DNA of 41,265 nucleotides. Source: a virus. Lineage: Duplodnaviria > Heunggongvirae > Uroviricota > Caudoviricetes. Within the stretch, counting starts at the first letter, position 1, and each line of letters opens with the position of its first letter. Below the pieces are notes generated by a model. It did not search any database. It had not been told where the DNA came from and was given only the letters and a program-made list of their open reading frames with translations. Below are positions 39,168-41,265 of the stretch, one piece after another. The stretch lies in IMG/VR virus record IMGVR_UViG_2521172717_000006; one strand, given 5' to 3'. A program made the position numbers and the translations under genes.

Positions 39168-39197
39168 GCCTCACACTCGATGAGGCATTTTCATTTA
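39168..39197 (+). terminator. Putative rho-independent terminator
   Basis: GCCTCA-cactcga-TGAGGC hairpin followed by T-rich ATTTTCATTTAT. Confidence 0.4.
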
Positions 39198-39221
39198 TCA
39201 AGATATCCAGACCTACCATCG

Positions 39222-39242
39222 CCGCATCAATGCGGTTTTTTT
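39222..39242 (+). terminator. Rho-independent terminator upstream of excisionase gene
   Basis: CCGCA-tcaa-TGCGG hairpin followed by seven T. Confidence 0.6.
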
Positions 39243-39287: not shown

Positions 39288-39488
39288 ATGCAACACGAAC
39301 TACAGCCTGATTCCCTGGTTGATTTGAAATTCATCATGGCTGATACTGGCTTCGGTAAAACCTTCATCTATGACCGGATTAAGTCCGGCGACCTGCCAAA
39401 AGCCAAAGTTATCCACGGGCGAGCAAGATGGTTATATCGTGACCATTGTGAATTCAAAAATAAGCTCTTAAGCCGCGCTAATGGGTAA
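39288..39488 (+). CDS. torI: Excisionase / recombination directionality factor, TorI-type (66 aa)
   Basis: Sequence MQHELQPDSLVDLKFIMADTGFGKTFIYDRIKSGDLPKAKVIHGRARWLYRDHCEFKNKLLSRANG recognised as TorI/AlpA-family winged-helix Xis. Confidence 0.9.
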   Translation: MQHELQPDSLVDLKFIMADTGFGKTFIYDRIKSGDLPKAKVIHGRARWLYRDHCEFKNKLLSRANG

Positions 39489-39561: not shown

Positions 39562-39576
39562 CTGCAGGGGACACCA
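39562..39576 (+). other. Probable attR core: tRNA 3' acceptor end CTGCAGGGGACACCA
   Basis: 15-nt sequence ending in the characteristic ...GGGGACACCA tRNA 3' end, about 75 bp downstream of excisionase gene. Confidence 0.55.
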
Positions 39577-39964
39577 GATACCCTTCAAACGAAATCTACC
39601 TTCACCCCGTAAAAGATGGGTTTGGCAGCACACTTGCCTTATATCTACTCATTTTTACTGCAACAGGTTGAAATCTCAGCACTGTCAGAAAGCGCTGATG
39701 ACTAAACAGCCCTGGGCCGGGCGATGTAACCATCACACAGAATCCTGATAGCGAAATATGGCGTGACTCGATACTTCACTCCGCAATGCATTCCTTGATG
39801 AATTCGCAGGACCGTGATACACGGGACAGGTCACTGAATGACGACAATGTCCTGGAAATCAGCGAACCGCGCATCTGAAGTACATTTGAGCGACTGTACC
39901 AGAACATGAATGAGGCGTTTGGATTAGGCGATTATTAGCAGGGCTAAGCATTTTACTATTATTA

Positions 39965-40008
39965 TTTTCCGGTTGAGGGATATAGAGCTATCGACAACAA
40001 CCGGAAAA
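39965..40008. repeat. Perfect 11-bp inverted repeat TTTTCCGGTTG ... CAACCGGAAAA with 22-nt spacer, just downstream of permease gene
   Basis: Read directly; no T-run, so not a canonical intrinsic terminator. Confidence 0.4.
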
Positions 40009-40017
40009 AGTTTACGT

Positions 40018-41265
40018 CTATATTGCTGAAGGTACAGGCGTTTCCATAACTATTTGCTCGCGTTTTTTACTCAAGAAGAAAATGCCAAATAGCAACATCA
40101 GGCAGACAATACCCGAAATTGCGAAGAAAACTGTCTGGTAGCCTGCGTGGTCAAAGAGTATCCCAGTCGGCGTTGAAAGCAGCACAATCCCAAGCGAACT
40201 GGCAATTTGAAAACCAATCAGAAAGATCGTCGACGACAGGCGCTTATCAAAGTTTGCCACGCTGTATTTGAAGACGGATATGACACAAAGTGGAACCTCA
40301 ATGGCATGTAACAACTTCACTAATGAAATAATCCAGGGGTTAACGAACAGCGCGCAGGAAAGGATACGCAACGCCATAATCACAACTCCGATAAGTAATG
40401 CATTTTTTGGCCCTACCCGATTCACAAAGAAAGGAATAATCGCCATGCACAGCGCTTCGAGTACCACCTGGAATGAGTTGAGATAACCATACAGGCGCGT
40501 TCCTACATCGTGTGATTCGAATAAACCTGAATAAAAGACAGGAAAAAGTTGTTGATCAAAAATGTTATAGAAAGACCACGTCCCCACAATAAATATGACG
40601 AAAACCCAGAAGTTTCGATCCTTGAAAACTGCGATAAAATCCTCTTTTTTTACCCCTCCCGCATCTGCCGCTACGCACTGGTGATCCTTATCTTTAAAAC
40701 GCATGTTGATCATCATAAATACAGCGCCAAATAGCGAGACCAACCAGAAGTTGATATGGGGACTGATACTAAAAAATATGCCGGCAAAGAACGCGCCAAT
40801 AGCATAGCCAAAAGATCCCCAGGCGCGCGCTGTTCCATATTCGAAATGAAAATTTCGCGCCATTTTTTCGGTGAAGCTATCAAGCAAACCGCATCCCGCC
40901 AGATACCCCAAGCCAAAAAATAGCGCCCCCAGAATTAGACCTACAGAAAAATTGCTTTGCAGTAACGGTTCATAAACGTAAATCATAAACGGTCCGGTCA
41001 AGACCAGGATGAAACTCATACACCAGATGAGCGGTTTCTTCAGACCGAGTTTATCCTGAACGATGCCGTAGAACATCATAAATAGAATGCTGGTAAACTG
41101 GTTGACCGAATAAAGTGTACCTAATTCCGTCCCTGTCAACCCTAGATGTCCTTTCAGCCAAATAGCGTATAACGACCACCACAGCGACCAGGAAATAAAA
41201 AAGAGAAATGAGTAACTGGATGCAAAACGATAGTACGCATTTCTGAATGGAATATTCAGTGCCAT
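40018..41265 (-). CDS. cscB: LacY-family oligosaccharide:H+ symporter, sucrose permease CscB-like (chromosomal)
   Basis: 415 aa; N-terminus MALNIPFRNAYYRFASSYSFLFFISWSLWWSLYAIWLKGHLGL recognised as CscB / LacY-like 12-TM permease; ORF start coincides with window end. Confidence 0.85.
   Translation of the reverse strand: MALNIPFRNAYYRFASSYSFLFFISWSLWWSLYAIWLKGHLGLTGTELGTLYSVNQFTSILFMMFYGIVQDKLGLKKPLIWCMSFILVLTGPFMIYVYEPLLQSNFSVGLILGALFFGLGYLAGCGLLDSFTEKMARNFHFEYGTARAWGSFGYAIGAFFAGIFFSISPHINFWLVSLFGAVFMMINMRFKDKDHQCVAADAGGVKKEDFIAVFKDRNFWVFVIFIVGTWSFYNIFDQQLFPVFYSGLFESHDVGTRLYGYLNSFQVVLEALCMAIIPFFVNRVGPKNALLIGVVIMALRILSCALFVNPWIISLVKLLHAIEVPLCVISVFKYSVANFDKRLSSTIFLIGFQIASSLGIVLLSTPTGILFDHAGYQTVFFAISGIVCLMLLFGIFFLSKKREQIVMETPVPSAI

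Follow-up and report, generated by a model that had tools for sequence, protein, structure and literature searches.

Transcripts that reach the transposase genes of IS10 and IS50 from outside reportedly hold two complementary segments and hide the ribosome-binding site (RBS) by folding back, an inhibition that Davis, Simons and Kleckner are said to have described in Cell in 1985. Class 3 promoters of the sigma factor sigma-28 (FliA), such as those of tar, tsr, trg, aer, motAB-cheAW and fliC in Escherichia coli and Salmonella, follow the consensus TAAAGTTT-n11-GCCGATAA (PMC2859248, Table 1), and the non-canonical FliA sites of E. coli K-12 are mostly intragenic, one of them, within the sugar-phosphate transporter gene uhpT, giving rise to a small RNA from the end of that gene (Fitzgerald et al. 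2014, PMC4183435). These systems, together with the stem-loops found at operon ends (intrinsic terminators and the 3' structures formed by repetitive extragenic palindromes, or REP), are the closest described relatives of an inverted repeat that lies at positions 39965-40008 of IMG/VR virus record IMGVR_UViG_2521172717_000006 (Caudoviricetes), a stretch of 41,265 nt that we analysed at its full length and call the window. The repeat directly follows the permease gene cscB, and we read it, with moderate confidence, as part of the orphaned 5' control region (a FliA promoter and a leader) of a lost chemoreceptor gene, mcp.

The likeness to class 3 promoters lies in the same octamers and 11-nt spacer, in a score within the top tenth of FliA-bound sites and in the placement of the relatives' copies 58-72 nt before a chemoreceptor start codon; unlike those promoters, the one in the window has had its served gene deleted and begins in the back-up stop of an unrelated sugar-transporter gene. 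We know of no classical sigma-28 promoter that has been described as having its -10 element and start flanked by a conserved inverted repeat. Like the uhpT site, this one places a strong FliA motif where a transporter gene ends and no protein-coding gene follows; any product would be non-coding and probably unstable. Unlike the intragenic K-12 sites, which are not reported to stem from the control regions of lost genes, it lies outside the gene, is absent from K-12 and can be traced as the relic of a chemoreceptor promoter. The parallel with IS10 and IS50 is that the element has its own (here predicted) start between two complementary segments, both of which are found only in RNA from outside, whereas the differences are a chromosomal chemoreceptor gene, an alternative sigma factor and an effect on translation that is predicted from sequence and folding. 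With intrinsic terminators and REP structures it has in common a stable stem-loop a few nt past the final gene of an operon, at a place that terminators occupy in other csc lineages, but it has no U-tract, a 22-nt loop, a single copy and no REP consensus, and it was not built for cscB. On sequence grounds, then, the kind of promoter is a known one, and what is unusual is its orphan state and the conserved pairing between its spacer and its leader.

Read along the minus strand, which is the sense strand of cscB, the element comprises the following features.

40018-40020, minus strand: stop codon (TAG) of cscB (40018-41265), the last gene of the cscK-cscB pair.
40014-40007, minus strand: -35 element TAAACTTT, matching seven of eight bases of TAAAGTTT and the same as the -35 of motAB-cheAW and fliDST.
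39998-40008: arm nearer cscB, reading CAACCGGAAAA on the plus strand and TTTTCCGGTTG on the minus strand, where it is the 5' arm and precedes the predicted start.
40006-39996, minus strand: spacer TTCCGGTTGTT, exactly 11 nt, between -35 and -10.
39976-39997, minus strand: loop of 22 nt, which contains the spacer end, the -10 element and the start site.
39995-39988, minus strand: -10 element GTCGATAG, matching six of eight bases of GCCGATAA, with the CGAT core intact.
About 39981 (+/- 2 nt), minus strand: predicted transcription start, within the "loop" of the repeat, deduced from promoter geometry.
39965-39975: arm farther from cscB, reading TTTTCCGGTTG on the plus strand and CAACCGGAAAA on the minus strand, where it is the 3' arm.
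39934-39964, minus strand: relic of the mcp 5' end, about 31 nt, in which 18-19 of 31 bases match the start of mcp in Citrobacter amalonaticus.

The initial annotation had pointed out a perfect 11-bp inverted repeat, its arms 22 nt apart, immediately 3' of cscB, and this description is accurate: the arms are 100% complementary and the repeat starts 9 nt past the cscB stop. By itself, it is statistically unremarkable. The window has one perfect inverted repeat of 11 bp or more whose loop is 3-40 nt long, and among 200 dinucleotide-preserving shuffles 32% hold at least one (mean 0.375), so that any argument must rest on context.

That context is, in the first place, a promoter. The block TAAACTTT-N11-GTCGATAG (40014-39988, cscB sense) is a near-consensus FliA promoter, which scores 20.8 bits with a weight matrix built from 51 FliA-bound motifs identified by chromatin immunoprecipitation and sequencing (ChIP-seq; PMC4183435 Table 2). 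This score ranks fifth of 51 against the leave-one-out scores of the FliA-bound sites themselves, between motAB (22.6) and hypD (20.6) and above tsr, flgKL, fliDST, fliA and fliC. It is the highest in the window, where the runner-up reaches 13.7, and none of 300 simulated windows attained it (mean maximum 13.9, standard deviation 1.8); a scan of 1.29 Mb of real DNA yielded no site of 19 bits or more other than copies of this same element. The spacer is 11 nt long in the window and in every lineage save one E. coli allele (10 nt), and its CCGGTT core and the adjoining T-run are almost invariant in 10 lineages. The -10 element is more variable, being GTCGATAT in O157-type E. coli, GCCGATAG in a divergent Escherichia (L010) and GCCGATAT in a Citrobacter-type lineage without csc genes (L155), and the GTCGAT core is also found in the FliA-bound sites of yjcZ, holA and rluF (PMC4183435 Table 2). 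Across alleles the promoter scores 22.7 bits (O157-type), 21.9 (L010), 20.7 (Citrobacter), 18.3 (F11-type) and 9.3 (the 10-nt-spacer allele). Its first three bases (TAA) are an in-frame back-up stop for cscB, which ends in tandem in-frame stops (TAG ACG TAA, 40012-40020, minus strand), the second of which overlaps the -35 element. In one Citrobacter lineage (L011, 4237-4245), the first stop is lost and the second used, and CscB is two residues longer.

The arms of the repeat are superimposed on this promoter in a particular way. Placed 7 nt past the -10 element, following the sigma-28 promoter layout of PMC2859248, the start would fall between them. The upstream arm (40008-39998) consists of the last two bases of the -35 element and nine spacer bases, that is, -27 to -17 relative to the predicted +1 (with no position 0), and the downstream arm (39975-39965) spans +7 to +17 of the predicted FliA leader. 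As the predicted start is downstream of the 5' arm, this arm would be present only in RNA begun further upstream, for example by read-through from cscKB (cscB is the last gene of the pair, so transcripts that run past it would carry both arms), and a FliA transcript, which lacks the upstream arm, could not form the hairpin. The 3' arm contains a GGAA that lies 10-13 nt ahead of the mcp ATG in all five lineages examined and is likely the RBS of mcp in the relatives, being the only plausible one. In predicted ensembles, the probability that this GGAA is unpaired is 0.00-0.07 in read-through RNA and 0.29-0.73 in RNA that begins at the FliA start.

The second part of the context is the gene that this control region would have served. 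In genomes of the C. amalonaticus group, whose CscB is 90-92% identical, identical arms directly follow cscB, and in four C. amalonaticus-type lineages a gene for a methyl-accepting chemotaxis protein (MCP) of 370 aa (Pfam MCPsignal) begins 5-6 nt past the repeat and is followed by a convergent fbp. Conservation is well above neutral expectation, since E. coli and Citrobacter cscB share only 61-68% of third codon positions, while the two arms are identical at 22/22 positions and a 27-nt block, TAAACTTTTTCCGGTTGTTGTCGATAG, is invariant between E. coli and the C. amalonaticus-group genomes. An MCP gene lies 58-72 nt downstream of the promoter in nine related loci, whereas the window retains only the relic of about 31 nt. 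The register of this relic is fixed by the repeat, and the anchored match equals the best found among 82,468 unanchored registers compared with the mcp start (best 19, mean 7.8). Identity to Citrobacter mcp is 55-61% across the relic and 25-38%, which is background, across the next 60 nt; the mcp start codon has changed from ATG to ATA (39959-39957). The relic is the edge of the DNA imported with csc, and it joins the remnant of a DUF4942 gene at about 39922-39934. This implies, as far as sequence comparison goes, that the E. coli csc cluster derives from a cscB-mcp-fbp locus of the C. amalonaticus type, with a break about 30 nt inside mcp.

The association with mcp is not limited to csc-bearing genomes. 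Orthologues of this short chemoreceptor are found in Salmonella enterica and in other Citrobacter, in a conserved mcp / fbp / mpl neighbourhood, and in Salmonella and three Citrobacter-type lineages that have no csc genes upstream, mcp is likewise preceded by the promoter (15.9-25.3 bits, 69-72 nt from the ATG) and by the inverted repeat. The genes upstream of mcp in these csc-less lineages are ppa (divergent), a ytfT/yjfF-like permease pair of the ATP-binding cassette (ABC) type and, in L155, an unannotated 252-aa gene, these assignments being our own reading of the gene order. Since the same promoter and repeat stand before mcp without csc, the element belongs to mcp. The link to permease expression suggested by the initial annotation therefore fails: an element that precedes mcp in genomes devoid of cscB did not evolve for cscB.

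The wider set of lineages also tells sequence conservation and pairing apart. In the E. coli/C. amalonaticus set, 97.8% of alignment cells are paired, 12 of 15 pairs never vary and no covariation is seen, so that conservation there is at the sequence level; an inner GAUA/UAUC mini-stem is kept only within this group, where it is conserved because it overlaps the -10 element, and is lost in the wider set. In the wide alignment, 91.4% of cells pair, against 33-56% with slid partners, and two pairs have changed on both sides (G-C to A-U, and U-A to C-G), a level of covariation reached in 7 of 500 shuffles. The arms of L155 (CCGGTTAC/GTAACCGG) carry mirrored changes, those of Salmonella and of two further csc-less lineages (L152, L154) are extended by GTAG/CTAC, and a C-to-U change in Salmonella leaves a U-G pair on the mcp-sense strand alone. 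The loop measures 22 nt in Escherichia, 25-26 in C. amalonaticus and 33-39 in the csc-less lineages, a variability that would be expected for a hairpin. These observations support, mainly through one lineage, the idea that pairing is under selection, and the conservation of a spacer that sigma-28 would not itself read is best explained by its pairing with the leader.

The scenario that we propose is as follows. E. coli would have gained the element with the csc genes from a cscB-mcp-fbp locus and then lost mcp save for about 31 nt. Where mcp is present, RNA from the upstream gene (cscKB, or an ABC-transporter operon in other Citrobacter) would hold both arms, fold and hide the mcp RBS, whereas RNA started by FliA would begin inside the loop, without the upstream arm, and be translatable. 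Synthesis of the receptor would then depend on flagellar control alone, and the upstream mRNA would acquire a stem-loop at its 3' end.

Several points weigh against this scenario. Regarding the promoter, (i) about 4.5 of its 21 bits come from weakly informative spacer columns, without which it would rank about 19th of 51, (ii) a plain consensus search allowing three mismatches finds it as the sole match in the window, but 37% of shuffles match too, and it is because this search is not significant that a weight matrix is needed, and (iii) the common E. coli allele with a 10-nt spacer has kept the 11-bp repeat intact at a score of 9.3, with a promoter that is probably weakened. Regarding the pairing, both double changes come from a single lineage (L155), with one wobble change elsewhere. 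Regarding read-through, a co-directional upstream gene (cscB, the ABC permease or the 252-aa gene) is present in most lineages but not in Salmonella, where ppa is divergent and the repeat is nevertheless kept, and no sigma-70-like promoter was found upstream on the Salmonella mcp strand. As for independent evidence, a literature search returned no paper linking FliA to the cscB locus. Published FliA maps were made in E. coli MG1655 and S. Typhimurium 14028s (PMC4183435 among them), and MG1655 has no csc genes, so the maps made in it could not have shown this site.

What the orphaned control region still does in E. coli is a separate matter. From its sequence, the element in the window would be an orphan that combines a hairpin ending the cscKB message with a predicted FliA promoter directed away from cscB into non-coding DNA. 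If active, this promoter would transcribe toward the DUF4942 remnant and attR, and any FliA transcript made in E. coli would presumably be short-lived: the terminator scan gave no canonical terminator downstream on the minus strand, and the 78 nt past the repeat are C-rich and G-poor (C/G up to 2.3).

The strongest competitor, which we regard as quite possible though the less likely account, is that promoter and hairpin functioned before mcp in the past and now lie idle in E. coli, where there has been too little time for them to decay. The loss of the served gene fits it, as does the lack of a canonical terminator or conserved open reading frame downstream on the minus strand, and so do the E. 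coli alleles with promoter-weakening changes, which are either the 10-nt spacer (one T fewer in the T-run, as in L005, which is strain 503829, and in 16 IMG/VR loci such as L042) or a weaker -35 element (TAAACTCT or TAAACTCA). Likewise, Escherichia sp. MOD1-EC7003 (L009, from about 4283 onward) has the end of an IS66-family element in the loop, between -10 and the downstream arm; this is a single insertion, and an "insertion hot spot" was discarded. In another locus (L150, about 2255-2300), where cscK and cscB are fragmented, there are two changes in the upstream arm and the -35 element (TAAACTCATTCCGG). An idle element is harder to reconcile with the comparison with L010, in which third-codon identity in cscB is 81% but promoter and arms show two changes in 38 nt, none of them in the arms and one moving toward consensus (by our own binomial estimate, the probability of at most two changes in 38 nt is about 0.016), or with an O157-type allele that outscores that of the window (22.7 bits). 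Some constraint thus seems to persist in E. coli, and if anything is still selected there, it may be the hairpin rather than the promoter.

A second alternative, which we find doubtful, is a DNA operator, whose inverted half-sites would be the arms and which would control mcp transcription by bracketing the -10 element and the start, being now either a relic or still bound in E. coli. The placement is typical of repressors, the CCGG core is conserved in sequence across all 10 lineages, and Salmonella has retained the repeat, with neither a co-directional gene nor a promoter found upstream that could give read-through. However, the distance between half-sites goes from 22 to 25-26 to 33-39 nt, which would rotate and separate them, and the mirrored changes of L155 and the GTAG/CTAC extension fit nucleic-acid pairing better. 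Nor can any known motif be assigned, and the repeat is unlike the palindromes of the csc control region. An operator of CscR was ruled out, since the arms are 22 nt apart and do not resemble these GTTAACGTTAAC palindromes, and since a LacI-family operator is a contiguous palindrome of 14-20 bp with a central CG, which the repeat is not. Two GTTAACGTTAAC-type palindromes lie in the cscK-cscA control region (L001, 8868-8893 and 8934-8955) and are, by their sequence, probably the CscR operators. The initial annotation's suggestion of a protein-binding site thus comes true in a sense that it did not intend, as an overlap with a FliA promoter, and fails if taken to mean a csc operator of the GTTAACGTTAAC type.

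Very unlikely, in our view, is an element specific to the 3' end of cscB, that is, a stem-loop that arose to end the cscKB message, either as a barrier to exonucleases or as a U-less terminator coupled to Rho termination. Stabilisation of the cscKB 3' end followed by Rho termination downstream was our first working model, which we dropped as an explanation of origin. It has in its favour that the repeat occupies the slot of terminator-type hairpins in every other csc lineage examined (in Raoultella, Pluralibacter and the 71% and 83% lineages, these hairpins are unrelated to it), that it folds on either strand with about -17 kcal/mol alone and a range of -17 to -23 kcal/mol (101-nt context fold against shuffles, z = -3.6 and -3.2) and that the C-rich, G-poor 78 nt follow it. 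However, the presence of the same repeat before mcp in genomes without cscB refutes such an origin, which would also leave the sequence conservation of the -35/-10 block unexplained, and there is no U-tract. On this last point the initial annotation was right in noting the missing T-run and in doubting an intrinsic terminator: there is no T-run 3' of the stem on either strand, the stem being followed by AAAAUAAUAAUAG on the cscB strand and by AAGUUUACG on the opposite one; with 5 G-C pairs out of 11 and a 22-nt loop, the structure departs from the G+C-rich stem and short loop (3-8 nt) of terminators; and a terminator scan of the window did not return it. As a side effect, the repeat may well act as a cscKB 3' element today.

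Finally, although a perfect 11-bp repeat turns up in about a third of shuffled windows, a chance repeat or a member of a dispersed family – REP or bacterial interspersed mosaic elements (REP/BIME), enterobacterial repetitive intergenic consensus (ERIC), miniature inverted-repeat transposable element (MITE) or insertion sequence (IS) end – has a negligible probability, for the repeat is single-copy per genome and confined to this locus, has no second arm in the csc region and no Rfam match, resembles viral-contig sequences with other loops only by unrelated chance and is kept across genera despite 32-39% synonymous-site divergence.

A 63-bp segment was found in 2640 of 5426 complete E. coli genomes, at 2641 places, none of them on plasmids, the one exception being a genome whose record ends in a second, partial match. 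The search for other copies that the initial annotation had proposed, run on these genomes, thus gave one place per genome, and its notion of a "remnant repeat element" is half borne out: a remnant it is, of the control region of a lost chemoreceptor, but not a repeat element, and the dispersed families named above (REP/BIME, ERIC, MITE, IS end) were ruled out on the same ground. Terminal repeats of a csc-carrying mobile element were also rejected, as no second copy of an arm exists across the full csc locus. Among plasmid and phage sequences, the matches come from E. coli records as long as 4.9 Mb and from prophage-type records extending into the csc locus; other viral-contig matches have unrelated loops and are chance matches of 9-nt arms. 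Four phage-labelled GenBank records (ON470608, ON470622, ON470589 and ON470594) and about 98 IMG/VR contigs (L026 onward) contain the cscB-end sequence, and these records probably include host DNA past attR. At the repeat, the covariance models of Rfam 15 gave no match even at E-values up to 10, and a tRNA search around it found nothing.

The surroundings of the element, in which the window resembles csc-positive E. coli with a KplE1-like prophage at argW, are made up of these further features.

39288-39488: torI, the excisionase gene.
39562-39576: attR core of the KplE1-like prophage, which shares all its 15 nt with the argW 3' end.
Next after the attR core: a spacer of about 455 bp, which holds the DUF4942 pseudogene remnant.
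About 39720-39921, plus strand: DUF4942 gene remnant, 72-76% identical to genes near the ends of CP4-type islands.

Homology to prophage-free csc-positive genomes begins exactly at the attR core, which is about 390 bp away from the repeat. The latter is therefore not at the prophage-chromosome junction, where it had initially been placed, but in chromosomal DNA that travels with the csc genes. Past the repeat, the gene order is cscB, cscK, cscA, cscR, a truncated dsdX and dsdA, and at the variable argW locus cscRAKB is known to take the place of dsdCX (PMC13054288). The DUF4942 remnant, which is annotated as a short coding sequence or a pseudogene in some genomes, suggests a trace of an older, decayed island at argW. 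In Pluralibacter gergoviae (L023/L024), csc adjoins fbp and mpl, and the mcp genes of L151-L155 (Salmonella and Citrobacter) are likewise neighbours of fbp. It may be around fbp that the csc cluster of Enterobacteriaceae originally resided. On the plus strand, terminator-like hairpins are found at 39624-39638, 48 nt past the argW-derived core, and at 39221-39236, just before torI, the second overlapping a sub-threshold isrK-like Rfam match (39168-39242, E = 8.4). A sigma-70-like match (TTAGCA-16-TATTAT, 39935-39962, plus strand) is directed into the repeat, antisense to cscB; a match of this strength is what the scan would give by chance, and Citrobacter has not conserved it.

In conclusion, the reading of the repeat as an orphaned mcp control region would (i) account for the T-less hairpin that ends a much-engineered sugar operon, a hairpin that was never cscB's own, (ii) pin the source of the csc cluster to a cscB-mcp-fbp locus such as C. 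amalonaticus has and (iii) predict, in about half of E. coli strains, a strong FliA site that is invisible to regulon maps of K-12. A bolder version, which we consider a long shot, is that this is a conserved fold-back insulator outside transposons, by which a chemoreceptor mRNA could be translated only if sigma-28 had started it, and whose orphan in csc-positive E. coli is still bound and fired by FliA, yields a non-coding RNA absent from K-12 regulon maps and shapes the 3' end of the sucrose-operon mRNA; if so, a strain-specific non-coding RNA would run from the end of cscB toward argW/attR and torI. In the relatives that have kept mcp, the pairing of spacer and leader would represent a testable design for insulating a gene of the flagellar regulon from the transcription of a neighbouring operon.

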